A DNA stretch of 59,686 nucleotides from Patescibacteria group bacterium (GTDB lineage Bacteria; Patescibacteriota; WWE3; JAUXAW01; JAYEID01). The number at the start of each line of letters is the position of its first letter. Position 1 is the first letter of the stretch. This document shows, piece by piece, positions 6,924-56,294 of the stretch. The stretch lies in assembly GCA_034659915.1 (NCBI GenBank), contig JAYEID010000012.1, forward strand, positions 1 through 59,686. The letters run 5' to 3'. Under the pieces are notes generated by a model. The model made no database searches, was not told the DNA's origin, and saw nothing but the letters and a program-made list of their open reading frames with translations. The position numbers and the translations under genes are program-made.

Positions 6924-7643
6924 TTACTTAAATAACAGACTCACACCAGCAATAAAAACAAAAGCATAAATCGCACGCTCTATCCAAATTGGGCTCACTT
7001 TCTTAAAAAGCTCTGTTCCCAAGAACAGCCCCAAAAAGAGGCAAGGTAATGCGAAAAGAACATAACGCAATACTTCTCCAGTTATCCGCCCGGAAAGAAG
7101 GTGTCCCACAACAACAAAAACCCCGGTAATACCCATATAAGTAGCAACCAAATCCTTATTCTCATGTTTAGAAAGGTTTTCGTTTGCAATCGAATAGAGC
7201 CCAATCAAAGGACCATTAACATTAAAGGAAGCACCAAAAAACCCAGCAATAGACCCCATAATAAAACCGCCAACATTGCCCATCTTTAAGAAACTCTCTT
7301 TGCTAAAAAAGTTATAAAGGACGTACACAATAAGAACCACCCCCAAAATCAAAGAGAGTGTTTCCTCCTGAGCATATCCCAAAAATAAAATTCCCAACGG
7401 AACTCCAACAAAAGCTCCCGCAAAAAGCGGAATTAGGTGTGGAGAAAGATTGTGCGTTTTAGTCTTTATAGCAACAATACCAGTAGCAACTAGCGAAATA
7501 ACAGCTACCAGGGGGATAGCAGTAGAGAGAGGCAAGATAAAAGGAAGGAGAGACATTAAAATTGCAGAAATACCAAAACCAATTAGCTCCACTCCAACAC
7601 CAGCAATTAAAAAGGCAATTGCAAAAAGCAAATACTGCACCAT
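6924..7643 (-). CDS. TauE/SafE family sulfite/anion exporter (membrane)
   Basis: 239-aa polytopic membrane protein with the glycine-rich helices and length typical of TauE/SafE. Confidence 0.8.
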   Translation of the reverse strand: MVQYLLFAIAFLIAGVGVELIGFGISAILMSLLPFILPLSTAIPLVAVISLVATGIVAIKTKTHNLSPHLIPLFAGAFVGVPLGILFLGYAQEETLSLILGVVLIVYVLYNFFSKESFLKMGNVGGFIMGSIAGFFGASFNVNGPLIGLYSIANENLSKHENKDLVATYMGITGVFVVVGHLLSGRITGEVLRYVLFALPCLFLGLFLGTELFKKVSPIWIERAIYAFVFIAGVSLLFK

Positions 7644-7698
7644 GCAAAGTCTATTATAACAAAAGCTTATTTCAAAACCACAAAGAAAGAAAAAAAGC

Positions 7699-7766
7699 GG
7701 AAAGAGTAGAACCTGCGTTCTTGCTCAAGAGCGTTGAGCTTTTCTCCCCAGGGGAGTACTCTTTCC
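7699..7766. ncRNA. 68-nt cloverleaf-like structured element, copy A
   Basis: Closing stem GGAAAGAGTA/TACTCTTTCC encloses three hairpins: GAAC-CTGC-GTTC, GCTCAA-GAGCG-TTGAGC, CTCCC-CAG-GGGAG. Second copy at 10934..11001. Confidence 0.55.
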
Positions 7767-7792
7767 GTAATACTGCTCTTCCTAACGCGCAT

Positions 7793-7987
7793 TTAGCGCT
7801 TGGAGGGAGGGGGTCCCTGCTTACTCTCCAACTTGTCCCAAGCGTTTCGGTCCGCTTCTTGCCTGTCTCGGCCCCAAGCTCTCGCTCGGTTTCCAGTCTT
7901 GGTATCCTCAACAGTCGTCGAGCGACCCGTGCCGAGCAGGGCATCTAGAACACCAGTACTGTCATACTTCTTGAATCTTTTACCCAT
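7793..7987 (-). CDS. small basic protein (64 aa), hypothetical
   Basis: ATG preceded by AAGGAGGTGAgactg. Several frames are open here because the segment is GC-rich, so coding status is uncertain. Confidence 0.4.
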   Translation of the reverse strand: MGKRFKKYDSTGVLDALLGTGRSTTVEDTKTGNRARAWGRDRQEADRNAWDKLESKQGPPPSKR

Positions 7988-8042
7988 CAGTCTCACCTCC
8001 TTTCCATCTCTATCTGCAGCTAACTTTTTAAGGTTCGCCAAA

Positions 8043-8071
8043 ATTTTAAAACTACCTAGAAAAACAGGCAA
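8043..8071 (-). promoter_or_regulatory. sigma70-like promoter (TTGCCT-N17-TAAAAT) upstream of the 7793..7987 ORF
   Basis: On the minus strand the -35 is at 8066-8071 and the -10 at 8043-8048, with a 17-nt spacer, about 55 nt upstream of the ATG. Confidence 0.45.
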
Positions 8072-8088
8072 TTCCACATATTTATGCT

Positions 8089-8107
8089 GTGCATAATTTT
8101 TATGCAC
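8089..8107. promoter_or_regulatory. 19-bp perfect palindrome GTGCATAA-TTT-TTATGCAC (candidate operator)
   Basis: 8-bp arms, 18 nt upstream of the predicted -35 and directly downstream of the RHH-domain gene. Confidence 0.4.
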
Positions 8108-8161
8108 GTAAGAACAAAAAATTATCTGAGAAAGTAGGAAAAAGTAAGTAGGGGAGGGGTT

Positions 8162-8740
8162 TTACACTTCTTTTTTAATAAGCTGGCGAATAAACTCCGA
8201 CTTGCTTACCGAGTTTCTCTCAGTAGCTTCATTAAGCATTTTGTCAATTTCTGGCGAGATGTAAAAAGTAAATCTGCGATTAAAAGTATTTTTTACTTCT
8301 TCCAAACACCAATCCAAAACATCTTCCAAAATGTCCTCATCGTAAGCAGACTTAATTAATCGGCTGGAATCAGCCCCGTTTGCAAAAATAGGATTCCTAT
8401 TACTTTTGTAAATTAGTATGGTCGGTTTTTGCTGGGAAACAAGTTGTCCCAGCTGATACCCAGTGTGGATCGAGGATGGATACGAACCTTCAACAACTGC
8501 GCAGTCAGCTTTTGCCATCTGTGAAAACCACTCCTTACTCAACTCATTAAGCTTAAACTCAGGCAAGTTGCTAAATTCCTTTACATCCCCTGAATATAGT
8601 GCTTTGTAAACATCATGGCCTTGACCTTCTAAATAATTTACAATTCTTTCGTAGATATGCTGAAAGTCCGCTTTTTGTTCTTGCGAAGCTGTAAAATATA
8701 TTTTCATCTTTTCTTTACTCCCTAATAAAAAAGCTCCCAT
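8162..8740 (-). CDS. DNPH1/NDT-like domain fused to a C-terminal ribbon-helix-helix domain
   Basis: KIYFTAS...ADCAVVEGSYPSSIHTGYQLGQLVSQQKPTILIY resembles the DNPH1/Rcl core (YFCGS...PSLGVGYELG). The C-terminus RFTFYISPEIDKMLNEATERNSVSKSEFIRQLI is RHH-like. The likely true start is the ATG at 8707 (MKIYFTAS), preceded by AGGGAG. Confidence 0.75.
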   Translation of the reverse strand: MGAFLLGSKEKMKIYFTASQEQKADFQHIYERIVNYLEGQGHDVYKALYSGDVKEFSNLPEFKLNELSKEWFSQMAKADCAVVEGSYPSSIHTGYQLGQLVSQQKPTILIYKSNRNPIFANGADSSRLIKSAYDEDILEDVLDWCLEEVKNTFNRRFTFYISPEIDKMLNEATERNSVSKSEFIRQLIKKEV

Positions 8741-8750
8741 TAAGGGAGCT
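8727..8750 (-). terminator. hairpin AGCTCCC-TTAAT-GGGAGCT plus U-run in the leader of 8162..8707
   Basis: 7-bp stem followed by TTTTTT on the minus strand. The upstream in-frame ATG (8740) lies in its loop. Confidence 0.45.
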
Positions 8751-8778
8751 CAAACCGCGGATTTTCTATATTTCCGCG

Positions 8779-8812
8779 AAAAAAAAAAAAAAAAGCTCCC
8801 TTTTGCGGGAGC
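8779..8812 (-). terminator. strong intrinsic terminator (GCTCCC-GCAAAA-GGGAGC plus a 16-nt U-run)
   Basis: Read on the minus strand this is a perfect 6-bp GC stem followed by the 8779-8794 A-run (T-run on minus). Confidence 0.75.
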
Positions 8813-8858
8813 GTCCAAGAATTATCAAGGTGCTAGTCACTATTCACTTGTTATCAAC

Positions 8859-8887
8859 TTTATAGCACAAAGAGTTTTGGTTGTCAA
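8859..8887 (-). promoter_or_regulatory. near-consensus sigma70 promoter TTGACA-N17-TATAAA
   Basis: On the minus strand the -35 is at 8882-8887 and the -10 at 8859-8864, with a 17-nt spacer. It points toward the 8779-8812 terminator about 45-75 nt away. Confidence 0.55.
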
Positions 8888-9018
8888 ACGTTTTTTACAT
8901 AACATAACATTCATCTGCTCTAAGCCAGAATTGATCATACCCATGCACAAGCCAAAAGTTTGTGCTACCCTAAATTCAAAGCAAAACAAAACAAACCTAA
9001 AAGGGGGTGAATTTATGT

Positions 9019-9261
9019 ATGGTTAAAATAAGAAAGAAAGATAATAGCTTGGAAGATTTTGACCGCGAAAAGCTTCGCCGAAGTGTTTTGGCAGCTGGAC
9101 TTTCAAAGGAAAATGCTAATGATGTTACTAACCAAATTGAAACCTGGGTACAGCAAAGCGAGGATGTCGTCTCCACTGCCCAAATTCGGTCAAAAGTGAT
9201 TAACTTTATGGAATCCAAAAATCCAGAAGCTGCTAAAAACTACAAAAGCTACAAAAAATAA
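9019..9261 (+). CDS. stand-alone ATP-cone domain protein
   Basis: MVKIRKKDNSLEDFDREKLRRSVLAAGLS...VSTAQIRSKVINFM matches the ATP-cone pattern of NrdR/RNR N-termini. SD AAGGGGGTG upstream. The ORF track starts at the GTG at 9007. Confidence 0.8.
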   Translation: MVKIRKKDNSLEDFDREKLRRSVLAAGLSKENANDVTNQIETWVQQSEDVVSTAQIRSKVINFMESKNPEAAKNYKSYKK

Positions 9262-9265
9262 ATTT

Positions 9266-9282
9266 AGACCTCTAAGGTCTAA
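9266..9282. repeat. AGACCT-stem palindrome (TAGACCTCTAAGGTCTA), terminator-like
   Basis: Immediately after the ATP-cone stop. The same stem recurs at 16971, 17061 and 59419, and in the composite repeats. Confidence 0.5.
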
Positions 9283-9450
9283 CAGCCGCTACCCTACAGG
9301 GAGTTTCAATTGCTTGCACACTTTTTTACACTCTTTTAGTTGTTAGTTTATTTCTGAGAGTTCTTTTGAGTACAAAACTAAAAAGGCAATCAAAGGTAAT
9401 ACCTTTGCGAGCAACCACTTACACAGCACTGGGTAGCACACTCCTCGTAC

Positions 9451-10686
9451 CTACTTGGCCAAAACTATAGCAATGGGAAGTTCTCTCCCCGGACCTACTG
9501 CATATTTACCGTTAATATAAAGGGCAGAACTTGCCCCGCCGTCCAAATTCAAGGCGTCCCTTGCTCCCAAAGCTTTCATCGCATAAGCCGATTCTGGCAC
9601 AGTCGCCCCATTAACAAGCGCTAGGTAAAGGTTACTACCATCCACACCAATTGCTCCTCTTAATCCGCGAATATCAGTCTGGTAAGAAGTAAGGTCATCT
9701 ATATCTACCACAACTTCACCTTCTGACAAGAGAGTAGGATAATTAGAAAGCCCAGCAGAACCCGCCTCGCCACCATAATCAGAAGATCTCTGGTAAAACT
9801 TTGCTGAGCTATCTTTAAACGTGGCTAAACCCGTCTTGCTCCAGCTTAGAGCTTCTTTTTGCAACCACCGCCCATTACTAGAATTGTAAAATGCAAAATC
9901 AGTAGAATTTGTTTTATTGGCACAGGTAACGTAATCCGGGGGGCAAAAATAACTAGCACTCATCCCCGCATAACCGCCGTGATCTTTAATATGCTCTTCC
10001 AGAGGTTTAACTGGACAGTTGTCATAACAAGTATCTTCGCTTGCTGAAGAAGTTACTACCCGCACATCAGAAAGAGCAACTTTCACCAAATGCACTCCAA
10101 AGCTTCCTCTCTCTGTATTTACAGTAACAAAGTCGTACCCTTCAATGTCAGAACGAGGAACTTCCCGGGGACGGAGTGACGCCAAGTATTCTTCGTGATC
10201 ATCATCTAAAGAACTTATTATATCCAGCATATTCTCTTTTAAAACATCGAAGTCTTTCTCCAAGAGCAATCCCTCCAAATCTTCCATTTCTTCTAATTCG
10301 TGAGCCACATCTAAGCCTAGTTCCTCATTTCTCTCCAAGTTCAACTTAAGAGAATTGTAAAGGCTGTATATTTCCTTCATCTCCAAATATTCCTTATTTT
10401 CTTCTTTTTCCGATAACTCAGTAAGTTCCTCTTCCAACTTAGATGCTTTTGATTCAACCTTAATTTTTTCAATGTGCCTTAAGTGATCTTCATAAATACT
10501 TCTTTCATAACTTTCTTCTTTCCGACTCAATTCTTGTGATAGGCTTTCCAAGCGCTGATTAACACTTTTTAACTCATGAAAAAGATAATTAACTGTATAA
10601 CCAAAAGACCCCACTATCACCAAAAACACAAATCCAATCAATACTATTTTTCTAGCCCAAATTTTTTGAAGTAGGGAACTCTCCAT
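9451..10686 (-). CDS. membrane-anchored coiled-coil protein with a C-terminal phosphodiester glycosidase (DUF2233/NAGPA-like) domain
   Basis: N-terminal TM helix and an E/K-rich coiled coil. The C-terminus RGAIGVDGSNLYLALVNGATV...ALNLDGGASSALYING is typical of DUF2233. Confidence 0.7.
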   Translation of the reverse strand: MESSLLQKIWARKIVLIGFVFLVIVGSFGYTVNYLFHELKSVNQRLESLSQELSRKEESYERSIYEDHLRHIEKIKVESKASKLEEELTELSEKEENKEYLEMKEIYSLYNSLKLNLERNEELGLDVAHELEEMEDLEGLLLEKDFDVLKENMLDIISSLDDDHEEYLASLRPREVPRSDIEGYDFVTVNTERGSFGVHLVKVALSDVRVVTSSASEDTCYDNCPVKPLEEHIKDHGGYAGMSASYFCPPDYVTCANKTNSTDFAFYNSSNGRWLQKEALSWSKTGLATFKDSSAKFYQRSSDYGGEAGSAGLSNYPTLLSEGEVVVDIDDLTSYQTDIRGLRGAIGVDGSNLYLALVNGATVPESAYAMKALGARDALNLDGGASSALYINGKYAVGPGRELPIAIVLAK

Positions 10687-10824
10687 ATTAGATATATTAC
10701 TACGTTAACCAAACATATAAAAGCAAGCTTACACCGTAGGTCCTTTATAGCATCTTAGTGAAATCTACAAAACAAACACCGAAACGGCGTATCAAACTAA
10801 GTTAAAGCCTGAGCTGAGTAAATA

Positions 10825-10930
10825 GGGGAAGTGGTCTTTACTATTGAACTTGAAATTAAAACAAAGTAAGCAACTTTATGGAAGTCGGAAAACCCGAAGC
10901 TGTTGAAACCAATCAAAACTACAAAAATAA
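10825..10930 (+). pseudogene. decayed duplicate of the ATP-cone gene 3' end
   Basis: AACTTTATGGAAGTCGGAAAACCCGAAGCTGTTGAAACC..AAAACTACAAAAATAA aligns with 9207-9261 of the intact gene. A frameshift and stops lie upstream. Confidence 0.55.
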
Positions 10931-10933
10931 GGA

Positions 10934-11001
10934 GGAAAGAGTAGAACTTTCGTTCTTGCTTAGTGGCCATAAGCTTTATCTCCGCAAGGAGTACTCTTCC
11001 C
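10934..11001. ncRNA. 68-nt cloverleaf-like structured element, copy B
   Basis: Same architecture as 7699..7766. Hairpins are GAAC-TTTC-GTTC, GCTTA-GTGGCCA-TAAGC (C-G to T-A double change versus copy A) and CTCC-GCAA-GGAG. Confidence 0.55.
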
Positions 11002-11090
11002 TTAAACTAGCCACACGTATCTGAGTTTGGCATCTCTATGCCTCTTCCTTATTGGTCCGCGCCTTAAACTAAGACAACCAGCTCTATATG

Positions 11091-11273
11091 CTAGTCATCA
11101 TCCGAACCATCACTGTCCGAACCATCACTATCCGGATCAGGGCAAGGCGATCGGCCGCCAGCCTCTTCGAAGCACCAATTTGCAGCCACCGCATCCTGCT
11201 CACTAGTGTGGACGCGACCATCCGCCGAAATGTAAAGATCTCGCCCTCCTTCATCCTTATCATCTGGGCACAC
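11091..11273 (-). CDS. small acidic Cys-containing protein (60 aa), hypothetical
   Basis: GTG start 9 nt after AAGGAGG. C-terminal DSDGSDSDGSDDD is encoded by a 15-bp tandem repeat. Other frames are also open. Confidence 0.35.
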   Translation of the reverse strand: MCPDDKDEGGRDLYISADGRVHTSEQDAVAANWCFEEAGGRSPCPDPDSDGSDSDGSDDD

Positions 11274-11543
11274 CGCAACTCACCTCCTTTAACCCCGTTC
11301 TCTTCCGCTCCAAACCCAAAGCGCGCCAAACTTGCTCTCAGTATAGTAAACAAAAATAGGTTAAACTTATCACAAAAATATACAGCCAAAGAGAAGGAAA
11401 ACAGAAAAGACCAACTGCTTAAAAAGCCCTAGAAACAGTAACTATGTAAAACATTAATCACATTTTTGTTACAACACAAAGCCTTTTGCAAGAATAGGTT
11501 TTTAACTTGAATTTCTAATCACAAGTGTTAATCTGTTCAAAAT

Positions 11544-15389: not shown

Positions 15390-15941
15390 ATGCGGAAGAT
15401 ACTAGCAGTATTGATAGTTCTGACATTGGCACTTACGATCACATCTTCAGCCTTGGCCGACGGTGAAGAGTACACCGAAGGCATTGCCGACAACCCCCAC
15501 AAGATCCGCAACAAGTGGGATCTGTCGGGAACCTTCGAAACGCGCTCCGGATACGATTGGGGAGGGCTTGCTGAAGGAACTTGGACGTACAAGTTCCATA
15601 TCAAAGAAGCAATGGACGGAGAGTACTCCGTCGGCTCGATCCACTTCATTAATGGTGATATCGATGTCGTTGCTCATGTAGAAGCAACGGCAAGGGATTA
15701 CGGTTATTGGAGTGGAAATGAGGGCAACCTCGCAGCAGTAGGCACTACCAACTACAACGACACCACCTATTACTTCATGTTTTTGTACGGGGAACGTTCC
15801 GTCTGGATGGCTCTAAGTACCACCCCTTACGATTCGTACTGGGCTAACCAGACCGTATGGGGAAGTTCCCTGCGAGCATACCAAGTCCACAGCCCCAACA
15901 CCTACGACTTCCCACTCGACTACAAGATGATCAACCAGTAG
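15390..15941 (+). CDS. secreted hypothetical protein (183 aa)
   Basis: SD AAGGAGGG. Signal peptide MRKILAVLIVLTLALTITSSALA. Aromatic and beta-rich mature part. Confidence 0.75.
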   Translation: MRKILAVLIVLTLALTITSSALADGEEYTEGIADNPHKIRNKWDLSGTFETRSGYDWGGLAEGTWTYKFHIKEAMDGEYSVGSIHFINGDIDVVAHVEATARDYGYWSGNEGNLAAVGTTNYNDTTYYFMFLYGERSVWMALSTTPYDSYWANQTVWGSSLRAYQVHSPNTYDFPLDYKMINQ

Positions 15942-15974: not shown

Positions 15975-16033
15975 AAGGTGAGGAGAGGCAACAAGCCTCT
16001 TTGCGCATACGCGCCCTCACCTTGTTTTTTTTT
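15975..16033 (+). terminator. compound terminator (AAGGTGAGG...CCTCACCTT plus T9)
   Basis: 9-bp outer stem encloses the small hairpins GAGGC-AACAA-GCCTC and GCGC-ATAC-GCGC, followed by GTTTTTTTTT. Confidence 0.65.
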
Positions 16034-16039
16034 AAAACT

Positions 16040-16218
16040 TACTAAGCAGAGCTGCCCTTCCATCCAAATTTAAGACATCTCTTGCCCCGAAACTTTCATT
16101 TCATAAACCGCCTCGGGCACTGTTGAATCACTAACAAACGCCAGATAAAGACTATTACCATCTACATCAATTGCGCCTCTTAGTCCGCAAACATCAGTTT
16201 GGTAAGAAGTTAGATTAA
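16040..16218 (-). pseudogene. fragment of a second phosphodiester glycosidase gene (paralog of 9451..10686)
   Basis: DNA aligns with 9520-9700. The minus strand reads NLTSYQTDVCGLRGAIDVDGNSLYLAFVSDSTVPEAVYEMK.., then an in-frame stop where LNLDGG is expected. The 5' part is absent. Confidence 0.6.
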
Positions 16219-16405
16219 CTAACAATATTTCCTTATACTACTACGCTATTAGCTTTCAGAAAAGCAATTAACTCGGGAGGTAGCAACTTCTTTACAAATA
16301 GTGTACAATAACCGTCTGCAACTTAGAGATTTTAACTTAAAATCTCCAAGTAAATTAGCTTTAGTGCACAGAAGTTCAAATAAAAAGGAGAGCTCGTTGA
16401 GTACA

Positions 16406-16912
16406 ATGGGCGCGTTACTAAGCCTGAGTTTGGTACTTTCCGGAACAGCCTCACAATACGCACCGGGAGTAATGGAAGCAACAATCCAGACTCGGCAAAG
16501 CGGAAGAACAGCCTATAATCTACCCAAGAATCTGCCGCCAGTAGATGGCTTTGCAGCTCTAGCTGAGGAGTACTACATAGGGAAAATTGTTTTCTTTCGC
16601 TCCCAGGGAGCAGGCGAGTGGGAAGCGTTCCTTGTAGTAGACTACGCAGGAAAGAGCGATTGGCAAAGCGCAACGGATCACCGCTCTGGTTACCAATGGA
16701 TAAAGACCAGCAGTATTGTTGCAGAAGTAGATGCTGCTACCGGAAGAAGGTGGGGCAAATCCTGGGGAGGTATTCCGGTACAAATGATTATCCCTCCTAA
16801 AGGATCCCTCATATTCCCCTCAAGGCTAGGTAACAGATTGCCTAAACATATGCTAGATAGCTACTCCGAAGCACAACTAGCTGGGTTCACAATCCTCCTG
16901 CCCGAAAAATAA
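16406..16912 (+). CDS. secreted RlpA/expansin-like (double-psi beta-barrel) protein, tentative
   Basis: ATG at 16406 after AAGGAG. Short signal-like N-terminus, then GTASQYAPGVME...AFLVVDYAG...AEVDAATGRRWG, which resembles DPBB lytic-transglycosylase-like folds. The ORF track starts at the GTG at 16301. Confidence 0.5.
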   Translation: MGALLSLSLVLSGTASQYAPGVMEATIQTRQSGRTAYNLPKNLPPVDGFAALAEEYYIGKIVFFRSQGAGEWEAFLVVDYAGKSDWQSATDHRSGYQWIKTSSIVAEVDAATGRRWGKSWGGIPVQMIIPPKGSLIFPSRLGNRLPKHMLDSYSEAQLAGFTILLPEK

Positions 16913-28424: not shown

Positions 28425-29384
28425 TCAAGAACTGTCCCCATCTTCATTTCCACTATGATATTCCTCGTGCACTTCTTTTAATTTCTGGTCAGTAACATGC
28501 GTATAAATCTGAGTGGTGGAAACGTTTTTGTGACCCAAAAGCTCTTGCACCTCTCGCACATCTGCACCTGCACGGAGCAAATCTGTTGCAAAAGTATGGC
28601 GTAAAGTGTGTGGTGTAGCCTCAGTAGTTAACCCTAATTTATGTACATATTTCTTTACCAAGCGCTGCACACTACGAGCAGAAAGGCGGTATGCCTCGTC
28701 CTCATCTTCGCCCTCATCTGGCGCTGGACCGCGGTACCGAATAAACAATGGATCTAAGTCATCCTCTCGAGTCTCTAAATACTCAGAAAGAGCACGCGCT
28801 GCGCGATCACTTACAAACACAACCCTACTTTTTCCACCTTTTCCAACTACTGAAAATTCCCGGGTTTCTAAATTTATCTTATCTCTATTAAGAGAAACAA
28901 GTTCGCTAACCCGCAAACCAGTCGAAAACAGAAGCTCCAAAATAGCCCGATCCCTTTTCCCAATCTTTGTTTTAGAATTAGGAGCAAAAAAAAGTTTTCG
29001 CAGCTCTTCCGATTGCAAAAAATCAATTTCTCTTTCACCAGTTTTTCCCAGCGAAATTTTCTCCGGAGGCATAACCTCTAGCCCTCGTTCAGTAATAAGA
29101 TAACGGAGAAAGCTTCTAAGAGCAATTAAGTGGTAATTACGAGTCTTAGGCTTTAATTTACGACCTTTTTCATTTTTAAAGTCAAAAAGCTTTACTTGGT
29201 AGTCGCGAATTAGAGTAGGGGAGATGGAAGAAACTTTCTTAACATTAGTCCAATTTAAAAATCTGGTAAGGTAGTGGCCATAACTTTCTAAAGTTTTTTC
29301 TGAATAATTTTTTTCCAGTTTAAGGTACTGTAAAAAATTATGAACCAAGTTTTCAACTTGATTTGCTTCTTTTTTGTCACTCAT
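28425..29384 (-). CDS. tyrosine recombinase, XerC/XerD family
   Basis: HTLRHTFATDLLRAGADVREVQELLGHKNVSTTQIYTHV plus an N-terminal SAM-like domain. The likely start is the ATG at 29384 (the track has the TTG at 29423). Confidence 0.85.
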   Translation of the reverse strand: MSDKKEANQVENLVHNFLQYLKLEKNYSEKTLESYGHYLTRFLNWTNVKKVSSISPTLIRDYQVKLFDFKNEKGRKLKPKTRNYHLIALRSFLRYLITERGLEVMPPEKISLGKTGEREIDFLQSEELRKLFFAPNSKTKIGKRDRAILELLFSTGLRVSELVSLNRDKINLETREFSVVGKGGKSRVVFVSDRAARALSEYLETREDDLDPLFIRYRGPAPDEGEDEDEAYRLSARSVQRLVKKYVHKLGLTTEATPHTLRHTFATDLLRAGADVREVQELLGHKNVSTTQIYTHVTDQKLKEVHEEYHSGNEDGDSS

Positions 29385-29941
29385 TATTATTAGTGTATTC
29401 CAAACTAGGAAAGTGGGTCCCAAATCCTAACCCAGTGTTTATAAGAAACGTCGCTCAATGTAGATTATACGACGTATAGGCTTAGATTAACCCATTTCTA
29501 AACAAAAATCAAGCAAGCCAACACCCATCTTCAAGCCTCCTTCAAATCTAAATCCTCATCCAAACAAAAAAATCAAACCTCCTACCCTCAGCAAACTTTG
29601 CGGCTTAATTTTTTACAAAAAAAGGGATAGAAACTACAAAGGGGAGTGCAAAAAAATTAAAAGCAAAAATTGAACAAAAAAACAATTTTTTAGCCAATAC
29701 TTATATCATGTTTAGAAAAAAATTGCCTTAGAAATGCTCTAAGCGGCTCAACAATTATTCCCTATAATAATAGGTTATCCACAAAATAACAAAATAGGGA
29801 AGTTCCAGTTTTCTGAAAAAGTTCGGATATAAATTTAGAGGGAAACCTTTTTGGGGAATTAAGCAAAAAAAAATATAAGAAAAAAATACAAAATAAAACT
29901 TAAAAAATTTAGGCTTGGTATTTTTTTTTGTTTTTTTTGTT

Positions 29942-31401: not shown

Positions 31402-31676
31402 AATTAGTAGTAGGCAGTAGTCATCAGTAATCCTCGATCCGCTTTCGGCAGTCATCCTGAAGGAGTCCCGATTTATCGGGACGACTGAAGGATCCCCTGC
31501 AAAAGGCACTGTACAGTAACATCACGGTCGCCGAAGAGGCGACTTCTACCCGTCATTTAAAATTCAAAATCTATTCCCTATTCATTATTTATTATTTAGT
31601 ATTTCGTATTTATTTGGAGCTTCGTATTTCGAATTTTCTTTATTTGTAATTTGTTATTTAGTGTTATTTAGTTATC

Positions 31677-31749: not shown

Positions 31750-31773
31750 TCCCTGCCGGCCGGCAGGCAGGTC
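31750..31773. repeat. P1-type GC-rich palindrome (CCCTGCCGGCCGGCAGGCAGG)
   Basis: Other members at 47650, 51497 and 55861. Confidence 0.7.
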
Positions 31774-31843: not shown

Positions 31844-32422
31844 TCATTTTTCTTCCTCATTTTTCTCCTGCATTTTCTTCCCCTCTCCCCTACTCTGCTC
31901 TTCCCCACCAAGCTGCTTATCTTCTTCATTTTTTAAAACATTTTTCAAAGCTGCAAAGGGAGCTCGCTCATTTTCCTCTGGAATTAAAGCCACAGCCTCA
32001 TCACCCTCCTCCCCTTGATAGTAACTAACAGCTGCCGGCAGAAGTCTATACGAGCCGTGGGAATCGACTACATGCCAAGCACCATCCTTCTTAGCCAAAA
32101 CACCTCTTATTTCCCGCCGCTTTACTCTTTCCACCTGCTTAAAAAAGTTCCGCCCCTCTTTATCAATCATCTTCAACCGATCCCCATAAACCAATTCTGA
32201 TTTAGAAGCATAGTTCTCAGGAACCTGATATTTTTCACCTTCCTCAGTTACCATTTCATGCCCATTAAAAGTCCCAAAAACACCAGGAAGTTCGCGAGGA
32301 TCACGTTCTTTCGCCTCTTCCAGCTCATTTAGCAACCGCTTAGCTAGATGAATACTCGAAACTGCTGCTGATAATGCTTGGTGTATATTTTGGATTTTTT
32401 TTCTCTCCTTTTTCTCAGTCAT
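31844..32422 (-). CDS. hypothetical protein (192 aa) upstream of the VirD4-like ATPase region
   Basis: Good ORF with a charged tail. No motif recognised. Confidence 0.6.
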   Translation of the reverse strand: MTEKKERKKIQNIHQALSAAVSSIHLAKRLLNELEEAKERDPRELPGVFGTFNGHEMVTEEGEKYQVPENYASKSELVYGDRLKMIDKEGRNFFKQVERVKRREIRGVLAKKDGAWHVVDSHGSYRLLPAAVSYYQGEEGDEAVALIPEENERAPFAALKNVLKNEEDKQLGGEEQSRGEGKKMQEKNEEEK

Positions 32423-32472: not shown

Positions 32473-34959
32473 CTAATCTTCTTCTTTTTCTCTCTGCCTA
32501 GCATCTTCTGCCTTAGCCATACCTAAATCAAATTGTGTTCCATTCCACTTTGCAATTGCTTCCGAAACTGCGCTTTTCCCCCGAGCATATTTCTCGCGGC
32601 TTCTTTCTATTATAGTATTCCTATTACCAGTTCTATACTCCTCATTCAAGGGAAAGGTCACTGCTGAAAAAGGCGGGGAGGTCATACCATCAATCATCAA
32701 TTCCAAATAAACATGGTATTTTTCCAAACTAATCAAATCCTCTTCAGTAAAAACAGGGGTAAATTCCTCCGCCAAAACTTTTGCATCGGGAGCTCCAAGT
32801 GCAAACGAAATAATAGTACCCACATTTCCAAAAACAGCATCCTGCATCTCCTCAGGGAGCTGAGCAACATACTGGTGAGTTATATTCAAACAAAGATGAT
32901 ATTTCCTGGCTTCAGATAAGATAGAAGCAAAAGACCCAGAAGCAAAGTTCTGGAACTCATCAACATATAAATAGAAATTGGGTCGGCTCTCTTCCGGAAT
33001 ATTAACCCTACGCATAGCTTCAAATTGCATTCTCGAAACTAACATCGAACCAAGAATTTCCGAGTCGTCTACACCCAACTTACCCTTTGACAAATTAACC
33101 AAAAATATCTTTCTCTCATTCATAATTTTAGTTAAATCAAAACTGGAATGAGGCTGACCAACAATATTCCTAATAGTAGGAGAGGCAAGAAATTGCCCTA
33201 AGCGATTCTGAATAGGAGCAATTGCTTCTGTAACTAGACGATTATTAGAAAGCATTCCCTTAAACTCATCCTCCCAAAACCTCTTTACTATTGGATCGTC
33301 TATTTTGTAAACAATATAATTCCGGTAATTTTTATCTTGAAGCAAGCGGGTAACTCCTAACAAAGTAGTCCTAGGAACCTCCAACAAAGTAAGAACACAG
33401 TTTCGCAAGATGTGTTCTAGCCGCGGACCCCAAGAAAAGGAAAACCGTTTCCGAAAGACATCAATTAATCCGGAAGCAATTAAACTCTTTTGGTCAGGAT
33501 CCTGCAATTCAAGCATATTAAACCCAAGGGGAAATTCCTTGTCAGCGGGGTTAAAAAGGACCACATCATCAATACGCTCCTCAGGAACAAAGTCTAAAAG
33601 GCGATCAATTGACTCGCCGTGAGGATCAATAAAGGCTACGCCTTCCCCCGCCCGCATATCTTGAATAGCCATATTCTCAAACAGAGTTGTTTTACCTACA
33701 CCTGTTTTTCCAATTGAATAAATGTGCCGCGGCCGATCTTCTCGCTTAATCCCAAACCTAACCATTCTATCCCGAAAGGTAGTCAACCCCAAATAAGTTA
33801 CATCCTCTCCTGCAATTGGTAAATCCAACGGAGGCTCGCCCTTTTTGTAGCGGGACCAAGCAAGTGAGGGCGTTTCCACACTTACATTTGGAAGGTGGAA
33901 CACAGATGCTAGTTCTCCAGTGTTAAGAATATAAACCCAATCTTCTGGAAACTTCCGAGTTCGGTAGTTTTCCAAAAATTCATCAGGATTACCACCAACC
34001 GAACTTCTAGTAAAAGAATTAAGATTAGCAGTACTAAATTGCTTAAAAGAAGCTGAAGCACTTCTCAGCAAGCTTTCTGACTTTTCCGGGGTACTGCCAA
34101 TAGCAATAAGGCGTATGGCTGTTTCAAAACCAACTCTGCTCATTTTCTCTTCCACAGCCTGAATTTCTGTTTGCTGAGAAGGTGTTAGCTGTACTCCACC
34201 GCCTTCTTCCACTTCCACCTCTCTACCTGGATAAAAAATCATAGTGGGTATATCAGTTAAAATAGAAATTACACCATTCATTACACCTTCAGAAATTTCT
34301 CCCAAAGAAAGAGCAGGTCCTCCCACACCAGAACGAACTGCATCTATATAATCATAACCCTCCTGCTGCCAAACGTCTGGGATGGGTCGGAGCAGAATCT
34401 GAATCCACACCTGATCTTCTTCACCCACCTCGGAAAGCGCACCAGTAATAGCTGCAAGGGGGTCTACATCAAAATCAGGAAAGGTTTTGATGGAAAAAAT
34501 ATGACTTTTAGCAAGTTCTATCTTAGCCCCACTTAGGCTCTTACCCAAATCGTCTAATTCTTCTGTATAATCATCTGCTTCTTCAATTTCTGCATTTGGA
34601 TATTGAGCAAAAATCTGGCTCTTAACAAAATCTGTCAGATGCTCCGGAACCCAGGTGTAAAAATATATACCGGCAGAACTAGCTGCAATCTCAAAAGATA
34701 TATGCTCTTGAATTCCAGGAGTTAGACGAAGCAATCCGTGCAGGGAAGCAAACATTTGTTCGGCTGAAAGAGCTCCTTTCTCGTTCTCTTTAGGAACTTT
34801 TATCACCAATACCTTCCCTTTATAAATAGGTTCTTTCATACCTTGTCTAGCTTTTCTTATAGCAAGCAAGGCACCACCAACCAAGGCCACAGCTGCTATA
34901 GCTACAATCAGTGTCACGCTCATCTCCTTTATTGTATGGTCTACAGGGAAAAGAGTCAA
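32473..34959 (-). CDS. membrane-anchored VirD4/TraD/TraG-like (type IV coupling protein-like) P-loop ATPase
   Basis: N-terminal TM helix. Walker A GKTGVGKTT followed by AFIDPHGE, Walker B-like FYLYVDEFQNF, then HLCLNITHQ. The roughly 370-aa N-terminal domain is unassigned. Confidence 0.7.
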   Translation of the reverse strand: MTLFPVDHTIKEMSVTLIVAIAAVALVGGALLAIRKARQGMKEPIYKGKVLVIKVPKENEKGALSAEQMFASLHGLLRLTPGIQEHISFEIAASSAGIYFYTWVPEHLTDFVKSQIFAQYPNAEIEEADDYTEELDDLGKSLSGAKIELAKSHIFSIKTFPDFDVDPLAAITGALSEVGEEDQVWIQILLRPIPDVWQQEGYDYIDAVRSGVGGPALSLGEISEGVMNGVISILTDIPTMIFYPGREVEVEEGGGVQLTPSQQTEIQAVEEKMSRVGFETAIRLIAIGSTPEKSESLLRSASASFKQFSTANLNSFTRSSVGGNPDEFLENYRTRKFPEDWVYILNTGELASVFHLPNVSVETPSLAWSRYKKGEPPLDLPIAGEDVTYLGLTTFRDRMVRFGIKREDRPRHIYSIGKTGVGKTTLFENMAIQDMRAGEGVAFIDPHGESIDRLLDFVPEERIDDVVLFNPADKEFPLGFNMLELQDPDQKSLIASGLIDVFRKRFSFSWGPRLEHILRNCVLTLLEVPRTTLLGVTRLLQDKNYRNYIVYKIDDPIVKRFWEDEFKGMLSNNRLVTEAIAPIQNRLGQFLASPTIRNIVGQPHSSFDLTKIMNERKIFLVNLSKGKLGVDDSEILGSMLVSRMQFEAMRRVNIPEESRPNFYLYVDEFQNFASGSFASILSEARKYHLCLNITHQYVAQLPEEMQDAVFGNVGTIISFALGAPDAKVLAEEFTPVFTEEDLISLEKYHVYLELMIDGMTSPPFSAVTFPLNEEYRTGNRNTIIERSREKYARGKSAVSEAIAKWNGTQFDLGMAKAEDARQREKEED

Positions 34960-38302: not shown

Positions 38303-38390
38303 TGGTGCCGCGGGAGGGATTCGAACCCTCACGGAGGGTGGCTCCAGCGGTTTTTGAGACCGCCCTGTCTGCCAATTCCAGCACCGCGGC
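38303..38390 (-). tRNA. tRNA-Leu (anticodon CAA), CCA encoded
   Basis: Minus strand reads GCCGCGGTG...CTCAAAA (anticodon loop)...long variable arm GGAGCCACCCTCCGT...GGGTTCGAATCCCTCCCGCGGCACCA. Cloverleaf checked by hand. Confidence 0.9.
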
Positions 38391-40499: not shown

Positions 40500-40625
40500 A
40501 GTTACCAGTTTCCGGTTTCTTCTTTCTTATTCGTAGTATATTCGTTGTACGAATAGAATTTATACCTTAATTATTCGCAATGTATTCGCTATCCCAATGC
40601 TTACTACTAACTACTGATTACTAAT
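40500..40625. repeat. composite repeat fragment, copy E (ATTCGN word array)
   Basis: CTTATTCGTAGTATATTCGTTGTACGAATAGAATT..CCTTAATTATTCGCAATGTATTCGCTATCCC matches the reverse complement of 55660-55860. Confidence 0.6.
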
Positions 40626-46633: not shown

Positions 46634-47218
46634 AGCGGGCTAAATCTTAACATAAAACAAGTAAATTGTCAGCTATTAGCTATCAACAACCACTCGTCAC
46701 TCTGCGGTCCAATCCGCCCTCCGCTTTCCGTACACCGCGATCATCCTGAAAGAGTTCCCGATTCAATTTAGCAGTCATTCTGAGCCGAGCTTCCAGCGAG
46801 GCGAAGAATCCCCTGCAATAAACTGCAACATCGCGGTCGATTCTTCGTCGGTTTAAGAAAACCTCCTCAGAATGACTTCTAGCCGTCATTTAAAATTCAT
46901 CCCCTATTTCCTATCTCTTATTCATTATCCCTTATTTATTATTTATTATTTCTTTATTTGTTTGGAACTTGGAATTTGTAATTTGTTATTTAGTTATCGA
47001 GACCCGAAGGGACGTACCCTACGCCTGCCGTGTACTCTACGTAGTACTGCGGTGGTGCTGTTCTCCAAGGACTACATCCGTAGACCCCTGGGGTGTGCCG
47101 TATGGTACTACCCTTGCAGGTTCTCTTAGGTTCCAGTCCCTTCCTCCCAATTCACATGAATTTGCTATTATTAAATTCGCAACGTATTCGCTATACTAAT
47201 TCGCATTAATTAGCTATT
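46634..47218. repeat. composite intergenic repeat, copy B
   Basis: Colinear with copy A. Contains a roughly 103-nt nested hairpin (GTCATTCTGAG 46774-46784 / CTCAGAATGAC 46866-46876, inner CGAAGAATC/GATTCTTCG). Also contains an ATTCGC word array at 47160-47215. Confidence 0.75.
46999..47125. repeat. AGACCT hairpin module with a roughly 100-nt insertion in the loop (copy B)
   Basis: GAGACC-CGAAGGG...CCCTTG-C-AGGTTCTC. The loop includes ACCCCTGGGGT (47084-47094). Confidence 0.45.
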
Positions 47219-48352
47219 TCAAATCTTAAACTCAACCACATCACTATCGTGGACAATATAATCTCTCCCACGCACATCAATAATTCCCTGTTCCTTTGCA
47301 GCTAACCACGAACCAGCCTCAATCAGCTCTTGGACTTGAACAACTTCTGCCCGGATAAAATTCTCGGCAAAATCACTATGCACAATTTCAGCTGCCCGCA
47401 AAACAGAAGAACCCTTCTTAATTGGCCAAGCACGAACAATCTCCCCTCCCTTAACAGTGTAGAAAGTAATCAATTCCAAAAGATTATAGCAGCCGCGGAT
47501 TACCTTATCCAAAGCAGACTCCGAAATACAAACCCCCTCTAAGTACTCTTTCCTTTCTTCCGGCGTAAAATCCGCTAAATCCTCTTCCAACTTGGCACAA
47601 ATGGGGATGGCCGAAGATAGGCTACCGCATTCCTCAGCCTCAGGAGCTAGACCTGCCTTGCCGGCAGGCAGGTCCGCAGAAGCCCCTGGGGCTTCTCCTG
47701 CAGCAGCCTCGTCTATATTGGCCACCACCAACTGCGGCTTCATAGTTAATAAATTCAAATCCTCTATCGCCTCTTCCTCTTCTTCTGTAAGCTTTGCTTC
47801 CACAGCCAATCTCCCCTCCTCCAAAACCTTTGACACCTTCTCAACCGCCCTCTTTTTTATTGTTTCTCTCTTATTTACATTTCCTTTTTGGAACTTGGTC
47901 CGCCGGCCGGCGGATTGGATTTGGAATTTCGAAATCCTCTCTAAATCTTTGAGCAACAACTCCGTATTAACTGTTTGCAAATCCTCCGCAGGATCAGCAC
48001 CACCTACCCTTTCCACACCCTCGCCTTCAAAAGCACGAACCAAATGCAACACAACATCCACATTTCTGATATGAGAAAGAAATTCATTGCCCAGACCCTC
48101 ACCCTCATGTGCACCTTTGACCAAGCCAGCTATATCCACAAACTCAATAGCAGCAGGTATTTTTTCTTTTGGATTTAAAACTTCTGCAAGCTGGTCTAAA
48201 TGCTCGTCTTTTACTTCCACCACCCCCACGTTCGGCTCAATCGTACAAAACGCGTATGGAGCGGTATTAGCCACACTACGACCAAGAAGAGCATTAAAAA
48301 GTGTTGATTTTCCAGCATTAGGAAGCCCTACAATTCCTACAGATACATCCAT
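47219..48352 (-). CDS. ychF: redox-regulated ATPase YchF carrying repeat-derived segments
   Basis: [27 protein letters not shown]-terminal TGS-like [13 protein letters not shown]...FIRAEV. Confidence 0.92.
47650..47674. repeat. P1 palindrome inside ychF (GACCTGCCTTGCCGGCAGGCAGGTC)
   Basis: Translated in frame as DLPAGKAGL. Confidence 0.8.
47678..47696. repeat. P2 palindrome inside ychF (AGAAGCCCCTGGGGCTTCT)
   Basis: Perfect 9-1-9 palindrome, translated as GEAPGAS. Confidence 0.8.
47900..47913. repeat. P3 palindrome inside ychF (CCGCCGGCCGGCGG)
   Basis: Flanked by TTTGGAACTTGGT and ATTGGATTTGGAATTTCGAAAT, strings otherwise seen only in the intergenic composite repeats. Confidence 0.75.
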
Positions 48353-51247: not shown

Positions 51248-51928
51248 CTAAAATTCTGTGCGTCCCTCAAAAGCGTGGGAAAGTGTTACCTGGTCAGCAT
51301 ATTCTAAATCCCCTCCTACCGGCAAACCTTTAGCAATTCGAGTAATCTTTATATTCAGCGACTCTAACTGCTCTTTTATATACATTGCTGTTGATTCCCC
51401 CTCCATCGATGGGTTAGTAGCAATAATTACCTCGGAAATCCGCTCATCGCTTTCCGATTCATCGGCCGCAGCAGGAGAAGCCCCAGGGGCTGGGGAACCT
51501 GCCTTGCCGGCAGGCAGGTGCTGCGGGCTATTTTTCACGCGGTCCACCAATTCATTAATCTTCAAATCTTCAGGACCAATATTATTAACAGGCGAAATAA
51601 CACCATGTAGAACATGATAGAGACCTTTATAATCAGTAGTACCCTCTACCGCCAAAACATCCAACGGGCTTTCAACTACACATATAGTTGATTTGTCCCT
51701 ACCCGAAGAGCGGCAAATTTTACATGGGCTCTCCTCATCAACACTAAAACAAATTTCACAAAGAACAGTCTTCTTTCGCAACTCAAACAATGCCTCAGCT
51801 AACAAGTCCACTTCTTCTTCAGGAACATAAAGAAGATAAAAAGTCAGCCTTTTTGCTGTCTTTGGTCCTATACCAGGAAGCCTTTGCAATGCGTTTATTA
51901 AATTTTGTACTGGTTTTGGTATTTCCAT
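51248..51928 (-). CDS. recR: recombination protein RecR with a repeat-derived in-frame insertion
   Basis: LPGIGPKTAKRL (HhH), C4 zinc finger CEIC..CKIC, Toprim EVIIATNPSMEGESTAMYI. Confidence 0.92.
   Translation of the reverse strand: MEIPKPVQNLINALQRLPGIGPKTAKRLTFYLLYVPEEEVDLLAEALFELRKKTVLCEICFSVDEESPCKICRSSGRDKSTICVVESPLDVLAVEGTTDYKGLYHVLHGVISPVNNIGPEDLKINELVDRVKNSPQHLPAGKAGSPAPGASPAAADESESDERISEVIIATNPSMEGESTAMYIKEQLESLNIKITRIAKGLPVGGDLEYADQVTLSHAFEGRTEF
51474..51491. repeat. P2 palindrome inside recR (GGAGAAGCCCCAGGGGCT)
   Basis: Translated as part of [10 protein letters not shown]. Confidence 0.75.
51497..51519. repeat. P1 palindrome inside recR (ACCTGCCTTGCCGGCAGGCAGGT)
   Basis: Identical 23-mer to the ychF copy. 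Translated as HLPAGKAGS. Confidence 0.8.
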
Positions 51929-55485: not shown

Positions 55486-55860
55486 GTGTACTAAATTACA
55501 CCTCCTTATTAAAAAAACTTTTAAACTTAAAATAAATTCTGTCGCTTAAATTTTACACTTTTACAACAAGGTAAGCAAATTATGCCCAAAAAGAAAAAGG
55601 CTTCCCTACAGGAAATAAACAGGTCAAACCTCAACTCCTCCCTATATGAAAAGAAAAATTGGGATAGCGAATCTATGCGAATTGATATAGCTAATTTATG
55701 CGAATTTAACAGTAGCGAATTAATGCGAATTAGTATAGCGAATACGTTGCGAATTTAATATAGCGAATCTGTTACGAATAGTTAAGGTATGAATTCTATT
55801 TATGCTACGAATTGACTACGAATACTACAAATATACTACGAATAAGAGAGAAGAAACTGG

Positions 55861-55934: not shown

Positions 55935-56069
55935 GGTAGATTGCAGAAAGAAGATAAGAAATAGTAAATAGGAGATAAGGGATAAGGGATAGGAGATAAA
56001 AATAAATTACAAATGACAAATGCGGAGAGTGGGGTGCTGTACATCGTACGCGGAATACGGACACCCGAT

Positions 56070-56083
56070 CCGCCGGCCGGCGG
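56070..56083. repeat. P3 palindrome (CCGCCGGCCGGCGG)
   Basis: Identical to the ychF copy. Confidence 0.75.
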
Positions 56084-56294
56084 AGGCGGACGAAGCTCCA
56101 AATAAATACGAAATATTAAATAAGAAATAATAAATAATGAATAATGAATAAGAAATAAAGGGAGGTGGAAAATAATTGCTTATTGTTAATTGCTGACAGC
56201 AGAATGCGGATATCTAATTACTAGTTACTAATCACTAATTACTTACTACTTACTACTCGCTAATTACTAGTTACCAGCTGCTAACTGCTTACCA

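Follow-up and report, generated by a model that had tools for sequence, protein, structure and literature searches.

A cloverleaf-shaped RNA motif with an invariant closing stem and a pseudoknot, found behind small acidic-protein genes of Saccharibacteria-like bacteria, as a candidate branched terminator

The 68-nt element that occurs twice in the window, that is, in the whole stretch of 59,686 nucleotides analyzed here, is a structured, cloverleaf-shaped repeat that is under selection for its pairing, a reading that holds and has been strengthened. The RNA motif is new, but its general kind, a structured element associated with 3′ UTRs or terminators, is known, and we place at roughly 55% the probability that it works as a branched intrinsic terminator combined with a compact 3′-end cap for small-protein mRNAs or, in other words, as a cis-encoded RNA, made from the minus strand, at the 3′ end of short and mostly monocistronic mRNAs of small acidic proteins. 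According to this mechanism, once RNA polymerase has moved beyond the stop codon, about 81 nt of transcript would fold into a four-way junction in which a 10-bp purine/pyrimidine closing stem, called P1 (GGAAAGAGUA/UACUCUUUCC), encloses hairpins I, II, and III, and the 3′ five nucleotides of the hairpin II loop would pair about 8 nt upstream of P1, with hairpin II and the pseudoknot lying alongside P1. P1 followed by a U-run would be the intrinsic terminator, and the junction and the pseudoknot would lock P1 shut, leaving the transcript with a compact and exonuclease-resistant 3′ end. The fold with its covariation, the strand, the pseudoknot, and the place behind small genes and ahead of promoter-like sequence are shown by the analysis, whereas termination, stabilization, and a recognition of P1 and hairpin I by a protein or a tertiary contact are inferred. 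Of the three roles envisaged in the initial annotation, the 3′ UTR terminator or the stable RNA is favored, and the recombination site is not supported.

The two 68-nt copies reported earlier were both recovered, copy A at 7699–7766 and copy B at 10934–11001, and they align with each other without gaps, being 74% identical over the 68-nt elements and 71% identical over a 95-nt repeat that includes flanks (repeat family D5). Each copy folds on its own into the 10-bp closing stem enclosing three hairpins that had been described (GGAAAGAGTA/TACTCTTTCC). When the sequence upstream of every T-run in the window was folded, A and B alone came out as strong folds in which a 10-bp closing stem holds three hairpins, so that the structure exceeds what chance would give. 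The family covariance models, also with filters off, found neither a third copy nor diverged copies in the 59.7-kb window, so that the density is two copies per window; candidates for a third copy at 32119 and 47543 were chance matches within coding regions. The end sequence GGAAAGAGTAC was also considered as a DNA uptake sequence and rejected, given that it is present just three times in the window. The coordinates of the features are collected in Table 1.

Table 1. Features of the two copies and of their surroundings in the window, together with the pseudoknot strands of three related copies
Feature	Position	Strand	Basis or detail
Copy A, whole motif (pseudoknot 5′ strand, 8-nt linker, four-way junction)	7699..7779	-	Covariance-model match, 98 bits
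Copy A, P1 5′ strand GGAAAGAGUA, first 8 nt all purine	7757..7766	-	Partner UACUCUUUCC at 7699-7708
Copy A, hairpin I, CUCCC-CUG-GGGAG	7744..7756	-	CUCC/GGAG core kept in all copies
Copy A, hairpin II, 5-bp stem, 7-nt loop ACGCUCU (7728-7734)	7723..7739	-	Fold and pair counts
Copy A, hairpin III, GAAC-GCAG-GUUC, abutting P1 3′ strand	7709..7720	-	Pair counts
Copy A, pseudoknot 5′ strand AGAGC, partner GCUCU (7728-7732)	7775..7779	-	Ends 8 nt from P1
Copy A, U-run UUUUUUUCUUUCUUUGU, two nt after P1	7680..7696	-	Sequence
Copy A, promoter-like site for the next gene	7675-7648	-	Promoter scan, beyond the U-run
Small gene pA, 64 aa, ATG at 7987, SD GGAGGTGA	7793..7987	-	ORF list
Copy B, whole motif in RNA orientation	10934..11014	-	Covariance-model match, 107-109 bits
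Copy B, hairpin II, GCUUA-UGGCCAC-UAAGC	10958..10974	-	Fold and pair counts
Copy B, hairpin III with GAAA tetraloop, GAAC-GAAA-GUUC	10944..10955	-	Alignment
Copy B, pseudoknot 5′ strand GUGGC, partner GCCAC (10963-10967)	11010..11014	-	Duplex and covariation
Copy B, pyrimidine/U-rich tail UCCUUAUUUUUGUAGUUUUG	10914..10933	-	Sequence
Small gene pB, 60 aa, GTG start, SD AGGAGGTGA	11091..11273	-	ORF list
ATP-cone gene 3′ remnant abutting copy B, outside the RNA motif	10863..10927	+	Repeat D11, 75% identical to 9193-9257
L015, pseudoknot GUGGCU / AGCCAC			6 bp
L013, pseudoknot GUGAU / GUCAC			One U.G pair included
L021, pseudoknot GUGAU / GUCAC			One U.G pair included; 13-nt linker

The initial annotation had proposed a search of related genomes for more copies that keep the pairings, and four such copies, in which compensatory changes preserve the pairings, were found in related MAGs, located by exact-pattern scans and by look-ups of homologs of the neighboring small proteins. 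The first of them (L007/L015, at 10221–10288) belongs to a MAG of an uncultured Candidatus Saccharibacteria bacterium that is 75–83% identical to the window across syntenic genes; the others are L010:1063–1125, L013:1107–1172, and L021:524–593, this last with a model score of 67.7 bits and an E of 9e-17. L015 additionally holds a partial copy, consisting of hairpin III, the P1 3′ strand, and a U-run, directly past the stop codon of NAGPA. The exact-pattern scan of the genome collection gave one true match (L007) and three chance matches, and that of the metagenome collection one true match (L013) and two chance matches; the motif was not found in viral contigs by pattern scans, nor in plasmids and phages by BLAST. 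The set thus comprises six copies from five lineages, with B and L015 counting as one lineage, and the motif family, although real, is rare and so far seen only in a narrow Saccharibacteria-like clade.

For covariation, a model-based alignment of the six copies was used, oriented as the minus strand of the window. Standard pairs occupy 97% of its 164 pair cells, as against 41–52% when the partners are slid by 1–3 columns; both sides change at 11 pairs, and the covariation score amounts to 0.44 versus 0.19 in the shuffles; among 500 shuffles, none attains the one value or the other. Hairpin III, which was hairpin 1 in the initial annotation, covaries at four of its four pairs, with stems GAAC, GGAU, UGCU, and GGUU, each complemented, whereas hairpin II has both-side changes at three of five pairs across copies, and the C-G to T-A double change pointed out earlier in its hairpin 2 is real (pair 56/66 of the alignment). 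Four distinct sequences are thus found for hairpin III, and three or four each for hairpin II and the pseudoknot. Hairpin II keeps 5 bp and a 7-nt loop in four of the six copies, the exceptions being L013 with a 6-nt loop and L010 with a 3-bp stem, and the closing stem has 10 bp, or 11 bp in L013. Coding across the element was considered and set aside: the ORFs at 7667–7792 and 10797–10970 share the stretch QER.FYSF just through nucleotide conservation, and L010, L013, and L021 alter this stretch by compensatory substitutions, so that the constraint lies on the RNA structure and not on a peptide.

Two features that the initial annotation had missed are the invariance of the closing stem and the pseudoknot. 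The ten pairs of P1, which joins a purine strand to a pyrimidine strand, are identical in all six copies save one G.U pair in B, and the CUCC/GGAG core of hairpin I is equally unvaried save one U.G pair in L021; conservation extends to the junction strands A(U)AAA and AA. Double changes occur at none of the 14 pairs of P1 and hairpin I versus 11 of the 14 pairs of the other helices; the Fisher p is 1.7e-5 for this comparison and 1.5e-4 if only P1 is taken. Pairing alone does not explain this invariance, which suggests that the sequence itself is recognized, be it by a protein, in a tertiary contact, or through pairing with something else. As a side observation, a GGAAGAG(T) stretch resembling the P1 5′ strand is found upstream of several small-gene SDs, and it is absent from pA, L007, and L013.

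In the pseudoknot, the hairpin II loop of 7 nt contributes its five 3′ nucleotides, which pair with a stretch about 8 nt upstream of P1. In copy A this stretch is the best loop complement within 60 nt upstream (duplex energy −5.4 kcal/mol), and in copy B a 6-bp version with a U.G pair reaches −8.5 kcal/mol; in A, in B/L015, and in L013 the top upstream complement of the loop is the pseudoknot strand, ending 6–9 nt from P1; a duplex of 5 bp or more would end 7–9 nt from P1 by chance with a probability of 0.015–0.05 per sequence. Both sides change at four of the five pseudoknot pairs, with the reservation that its discovery and its support come from one and the same set of sequences, of only five independent lineages. 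No convincing pseudoknot was found in L010, where hairpin II is shortened. A coupling of the pseudoknot to translation termination was rejected, given that the stop codon lies at no fixed distance from the pseudoknot strand (9, 13, 25, and 76 nt).

The functional strand is the minus strand of the window, and it is most likely RNA on which selection acts; we take this from the G.U wobbles, the GAAA tetraloop, the U-run, and the orientation of the neighboring genes. In the minus orientation there are four G.U or U.G pairs (in P1 of B, in hairpins I and II of L021, and in the L013 pseudoknot), all four of which turn into A.C mismatches in a plus-strand reading, whereas the minus orientation of the six copies is free of A.C pairs. 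The single mismatch described in the closing stem of B is one of these cases, since it pairs as G.U once the minus strand is read and is an A.C only in the plus orientation. In B/L015 and L010, three copies of two lineages, hairpin III ends in a GAAA tetraloop. The plus-strand GCAA loop to which the initial annotation had called attention is indeed present in B, but it is unique to B and not conserved, the other copies having CAG (by folding) or CCAG, CGGT, CAAG, AAAT, and CGAAA at its position; the recurrent GNRA loop is instead the GAAA of the minus strand, in what was then called hairpin 1. Folding energies are also lower on the minus strand for both copies, with −29.5 kcal/mol for A and −24.3 kcal/mol for B (z −4.1 and −3.7), as compared with −28.1 and −19.9 kcal/mol on the plus strand (z −3.0 and −2.2).

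The genomic position is equally regular on the upstream side. All six copies lie 20–90 nt past the stop codon of a small, G+C-rich gene led by a strong SD of the AGGAGGTGA type, namely pA, pB, the pB homologs of L015 and L021, the second small gene of an array in L010, and a 71-aa ORF in L013, and this upstream gene is always a small acidic-protein gene. The small ORFs with strong SD sites that had been described next to both copies are there on the minus strand, A following the stop of its 64-aa ORF by 26 nt and B that of its 60-aa ORF by 89 nt; both ORFs carry AGGAGGTGA sites, and the T-rich run after each copy is likewise present. pA and pB are islands of 55% G+C in surroundings of about 38–40% G+C, pA has a 63% identical homolog (P0006) in an unrelated G+C-rich contig (L014), and the pB homologs P0002–P0004 differ mainly at third codon positions, i.e., synonymously; both are real genes, and pB is protein-coding. 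The proteins of the pB family have mostly 57–75 aa and the motif YISxDGRVHxS...A.AAN..FE..G..C.DP, and Pfam gave no match for the small proteins at its curated cut-off. No cloverleaf was found downstream of P0006 (L014), nor downstream of the remote pB homologs P0007, P0014, P0015, and P0009 (L017–L020, L022–L025), and therefore the motif does not travel with the whole protein family; in L009, L014, L017–L020, and L022–L025 the gene is followed by ordinary hairpins or by nothing recognizable. Branched terminators as a general habit were also rejected, since L009, L022, and L025 fold as long irregular hairpins, and the only clearly Y-shaped one in that comparison is at 15977–16021 of the window.

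On the downstream side, a U-run after P1 is clear in four copies: in A it is a U7 that begins 2 nt past P1, in L015 a U6 directly adjoining the stem, and in L010 and L021 a U9 and a U6 at distances of 6 and 7 nt, respectively, whereas B has an interrupted run (UCCUUAUUUUU) and L013 a weak one. In L015, as in A, a promoter-like box (TGTTATAAT, read by eye) lies beyond the U-run. The next ORF starts 14 nt after P1 in L013 and 35 nt after P1 in L021, and in B the next gene is 247 nt away, beyond a pseudogene remnant. The downstream genes have nothing in common, comprising TauE, NAGPA, VWA, and proteins without a Pfam match.

The surroundings of copy B have been rearranged. The initial annotation had placed a remnant of the 3′ end of the ATP-cone gene at each copy, and this stands for B (local alignment 57 versus 16.4 ± 2.6 in shuffles) but not for A (19 versus 18.5); an intact ATP-cone gene is located at 9007–9261 of the window. 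In L015 the ATP-cone and Metallophos genes are adjacent, about 40 nt apart, while in the window some 578 nt (10928–11505) separate the ATP-cone remnant from Metallophos and hold B, pB, and the upstream region of pB. The remnant marks the edge of a rearranged module, and the different spacing in the window and in L015 indicates that the unit of small gene and element has moved. The element also sits exactly at the edge of the sequence shared by the window and L015; given that intergenic DNA would not align at a genome identity of 75–83%, this edge is weak evidence, and weak evidence is what these observations would provide for a mobility at the DNA level.

The reading of the motif as a branched terminator with a 3′-end cap accounts for its place after the stop codon and before the next promoter-like sequence, and the partial copy of L015, past the NAGPA stop codon, is found where a terminator belongs and therefore counts in its favor. 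Against it, simple-hairpin terminators exist in the same window at 8795–8812 and 8731–8751, so that termination does not need this elaboration, and termination alone leaves the unvarying sequence of P1 and hairpin I unexplained, which counts against a role as a terminator only. Also to be held against the terminator are the interrupted or weak U-runs of B and L013, the close next ORFs of L013 and L021, and L010 with its missing pseudoknot.

The main rival, which we consider possible but unlikely, is that the motif is a functional RNA module in itself, with the terminator being incidental, for example, a stable small RNA derived from the 3′ UTR or a protein-binding handle. Either P1 and hairpin I (GGAAAGAGUACUCC...GGAG...UACUCUUUCC) would be read by a dedicated protein, or the pseudoknotted junction would block a 5′→3′ exonuclease, for example RNase J, and leave an RNA of about 90 nt, as the viral xrRNAs do. 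The unvarying P1 and hairpin I amid covarying helices point to a sequence-specific recognition, the A-rich junction strands are conserved as well, and the pseudoknot uses sequence 5′ of the junction, which is the side where a 5′→3′ enzyme would arrive; furthermore, a flaviviral xrRNA blocks the bacterial RNase J1 in vitro (PMC5760640), from which it follows that an exonuclease block is physically possible in bacteria. The topology, however, is unlike that of the known xrRNAs, with a four-way instead of a three-way junction and a pseudoknot running from a loop to the 5′ flank; there is no match to an xrRNA or small-RNA family of Rfam, and L010 has no pseudoknot. It is with the same tentativeness that we conceive the motif as a bacterial counterpart of the viral and eukaryotic 3′-end “knots” (xrRNA, ENE/triple-helix), in which the invariant stem would be read by a dedicated factor or in a tertiary contact and the 3′ end of the small acidic-protein mRNA protected, or released as an RNA of about 90 nt, in Saccharibacteria.

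A regulatory leader acting in cis on the downstream gene, be it a riboswitch-like aptamer set in a terminator or an attenuator responding to a protein or to temperature, seems improbable to us; in such a leader a ligand or factor would stabilize or open P1 and in this way set the read-through. The architecture is aptamer-like, with its four-way junction, pseudoknot, and conserved junction purines, the HMP-PP riboswitch (PMC6478431) offers a precedent for an aptamer embedded in a terminator, and in L013 and L021 the next ORF begins within 14–35 nt of P1; yet the genes that such a leader would control share nothing, whereas the upstream gene is always of the small acidic-protein kind, in A and L015 promoter-like sites separate the element from the gene that follows, and in B that gene is 247 nt off, across the pseudogene remnant. 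We give an equally low probability to an element acting as DNA, either a miniature mobile repeat similar to REP or MITE sequences or an attC-like single-strand recombination site that moves small-gene cassettes. Its ends do form a 10-bp inverted repeat, the unit of pB and element has one neighborhood in the window and another in L015, the element lying exactly where the shared sequence ends, a partial copy adjoins NAGPA in L015, and L009 and the window have different small genes behind the RHH-domain gene. Target-site duplications, however, are missing at both copies, as is seen in the flanks ...AAAAAAGC|GTAATACT... of A and ...AATAAGGA|TTAAACTA... of B, and the 59.7 kb hold two copies and no diverged ones (covariance model, filters off). 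The attC core sites RYYYAAC and GTTRRRY are also absent, the ends being GGAAAGAGTAC... and ...GTTCTACTCTTTCC, with GTTCTAC and GTTCTTG not fitting GTTRRRY; the shape is branched and not a single bulged hairpin, and the sole tyrosine recombinase among the scanned ORFs of the window (a set that leaves out 18 ORFs of at least 150 aa beyond 36.9 kb) is Xer-like and lies 17 kb away at 28425–29423. Selection has acted on an RNA, to judge from the G.U pairs, the GAAA tetraloop, and the covariation of the pseudoknot.

The least probable of these alternatives, and a very doubtful one, is a tRNA mimic through which RNase P, RNase Z, or the CCA-adding enzyme would process the 3′ end of the mRNA, as in mascRNA or in the TLS of plant viruses. 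The outline is that of a cloverleaf, the middle arm is of anticodon size with its 5-bp stem and 7-nt loop, and the last hairpin directly adjoins P1 on its 3′ strand, in the fashion of a T-arm. A tRNA has a 7-bp acceptor stem, a CCA end, and D- and T-loops of about 7–11 nt with conserved GG and TΨC. In the motif, the loops of the side hairpins are variable in sequence and have only 3–5 nt, and hence no D-loop/T-loop elbow is available; the closing stem has 10 bp and is followed by GCU, UCC, UUU, GUU, AAC, and UCC in the respective copies, without a CCA or discriminator pattern, and the loop, which is occupied by the pseudoknot, has neither a U at position 33, where A has C, B has G, and L015 has A, nor an R at position 37. 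The view of the initial annotation that this is not a tRNA holds from the negative results of both ARAGORN and Rfam: ARAGORN, which in the window finds only a tRNA-Leu at 38303–38390, was silent at both copies, and so was Rfam 15, with no match at the gathering threshold at either copy and, at E ≤ 10 over 7400–11400, only unrelated weak matches elsewhere, its tRNA model included among the negatives.

Among known systems, the tRNAs, the TLS, mascRNA, and the tRNA-like yjdF aptamer share with the motif the cloverleaf outline and a central arm of 5 bp with a 7-nt loop, and some of them also its position at the 3′ end of a longer RNA; in contrast to them, it has no D- or T-loop signatures, its closing stem has 10 instead of 7 bp, it has no CCA, and its “anticodon” loop is engaged in a pseudoknot. 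With REP/BIME, Correia, and RUP sequences it has in common that they are short repeats with inverted ends lying just after genes, and such REP- or MITE-like repeats can act as terminators or mRNA stabilizers. It differs from them in having no target duplication and in that no associated transposase was seen, and probably, to judge from the two copies in the 59.7 kb of the window, in a very low copy number; the covariation of the internal helices and of the pseudoknot shows that the fold has been under long-term selection and has not spread recently. Similarly to the attC sites of integrons, it follows small ORFs of varied families and consists of imperfect inverted repeats that fold as a single strand, but the R″/R′ cores are absent, the fold is a branched cloverleaf, and there is no array of promoterless cassettes beside an integron integrase; pA, in contrast to such cassettes, has its own promoter-like site, and between A and B, which are 3.2 kb apart, there are ordinary genes. 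With the xrRNAs it shares a compact multi-helix junction of about 70–80 nt in a 3′ UTR and a pseudoknot that reaches outside the junction. The known xrRNAs, nevertheless, are viral, have three-way or stem-loop folds with other pseudoknot partners, and their resistance has been demonstrated, whereas here the fold comes from sequence and matches no xrRNA of Rfam.

Covariation and pseudoknot are clean and the invariant stem is odd, but it should be kept in mind that the family is small, that many candidate RNA motifs of comparable standing exist, and that, to our knowledge, almost nothing is known of RNA-level gene control in Saccharibacteria and other CPR, and few CPR-specific structured RNAs have been described. 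If the motif only terminates, it is a curiosity of modest interest; if the fold has a role beyond termination, such as exonuclease resistance or the binding of a protein, it would represent a new bacterial control of the lifetime of small-protein mRNAs. It would also offer a way into the uncharacterized family of small acidic proteins with the YISxDGRVH...C.DP motif that the element accompanies. Judged from sequence, the closest working likeness is most probably that to the intrinsic terminators, with which the motif shares a stem that has G-C pairs at the base and is followed by a nearby U-run, a place after the stop codon and before the next unit with its promoter-like sequence, and action on one strand. 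Intrinsic terminators are usually plain hairpins, and termination does not require an invariant stem sequence, whereas in this motif the stem is invariant and holds a four-way junction with three hairpins, and a loop pairs with the flank in a pseudoknot. The motif would thus be an unusual terminator, in which a terminator-like invariant stem is joined to a covarying four-way junction and a pseudoknot.

In RNA orientation, the 5' flank of copy B, one of the window's two 68-nt cloverleaf elements, repeats the pseudoknot flank and linker in degenerate form (CTTAGTTTAAGG compared with CTAGTTTAAGG), with approximately 50 nt between the two versions that include a small hairpin, GGCATCTCTATGCC on the plus strand. 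Because the duplicated sequence brackets these 50 nt, copy B lies 89 nt from the stop codon, versus 22 nt for the copy in the related metagenomic contig L015. In that contig, a truncated element directly follows the NAGPA stop codon, and GGAAGAG at the coding end of NAGPA could base-pair with its retained 3' strand; in the window, NAGPA ends instead in a simple hairpin terminator. We also observed a terminator-like Y-shaped structure directly 3' of ORF 15390-15941, with a fold of -25.5 kcal/mol (z -6.2), and therefore the cloverleaf is not the sole branched terminator in this genome.

Coordinates and composition of features in the window and in contig L015
Feature	Position	Strand	Details
Second flank/linker copy at B	11062-11073 vs 11001-11011		
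Small hairpin at B	11029-11042		
Truncated element	L015:9061-9085		hairpin III GAAC-GAGG-GTTC, TACTCTTTCC, T-run
Y-shaped structure	15977-16021	+	GGTGAGG/CCTCACC stem enclosing the hairpins AGAGGC..GCCTCT and GCGC-ATAC-GCGC, then T9
Xer-like tyrosine recombinase	28425-29423	-	
TrwB/TraG-like coupling protein	32473-34959	-	
AT-rich intergenic repeats	31541-31662, 46874-46994, 55952-56303		7- and 14-nt periodicity
74-nt repeat pair	31541-31614, 46874-46947		78% identical
Tandem repeat	55664-55770		25/48-nt unit ATAGCGAATC.ATGCGAATTAAT..., 2.2-4.5 copies
Similar ATTCGC motifs	40529-40598, 47175-47200		
23-nt palindrome	47651-47673, 51497-51519		identical; weaker copies at 31750 and 55856
136-nt direct repeat	9566-9701, 16086-16221		77% identity

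The window holds several other repeats, among them AT-rich intergenic ones (AATAAAT x8 and CTAATTA x9, for example), a tandem repeat, and the palindrome ACCTGCCTTGCCGGCAGGCAGGT, which sits within two different ORFs, both on the minus strand. The 136-nt direct repeat, with one partner in the NAGPA gene and the other upstream of ORF 16301-16912, is possibly a duplicated domain fragment. The recombinase and the coupling protein, no more than 6 kb apart, are perhaps a sign that remains of a conjugative element are integrated here.

Small genes of 55-76 aa, acidic and G+C-rich, occur at 7700-7990 and 11000-11290 of the window and in two related contigs (L009:4707-5402 and L010:526-992), with near-identical ribosome-binding sites, AGGAGGTGA(GAA), and whereas the window has them as singletons, the relatives carry arrays of 2-3. 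Downstream of the RHH-domain gene the gene set differs, with pA, the small gene upstream of copy A, in the window and pB, its counterpart at copy B, plus two others in L009, so the small-gene content of this locus may be variable. The small proteins had no Pfam match at the curated cut-off; the pB family carries the motif YISxDGRVH..C.DP. At L017:1339-4478, the genes after P0007, a remote homologue of pB, encode a 75-aa protein with a C-terminal Gly, two proteins that match nothing in Pfam, and a ThiF protein (E1-like), a gene order that, judged by eye, resembles a bacterial ubiquitin-like conjugation operon.
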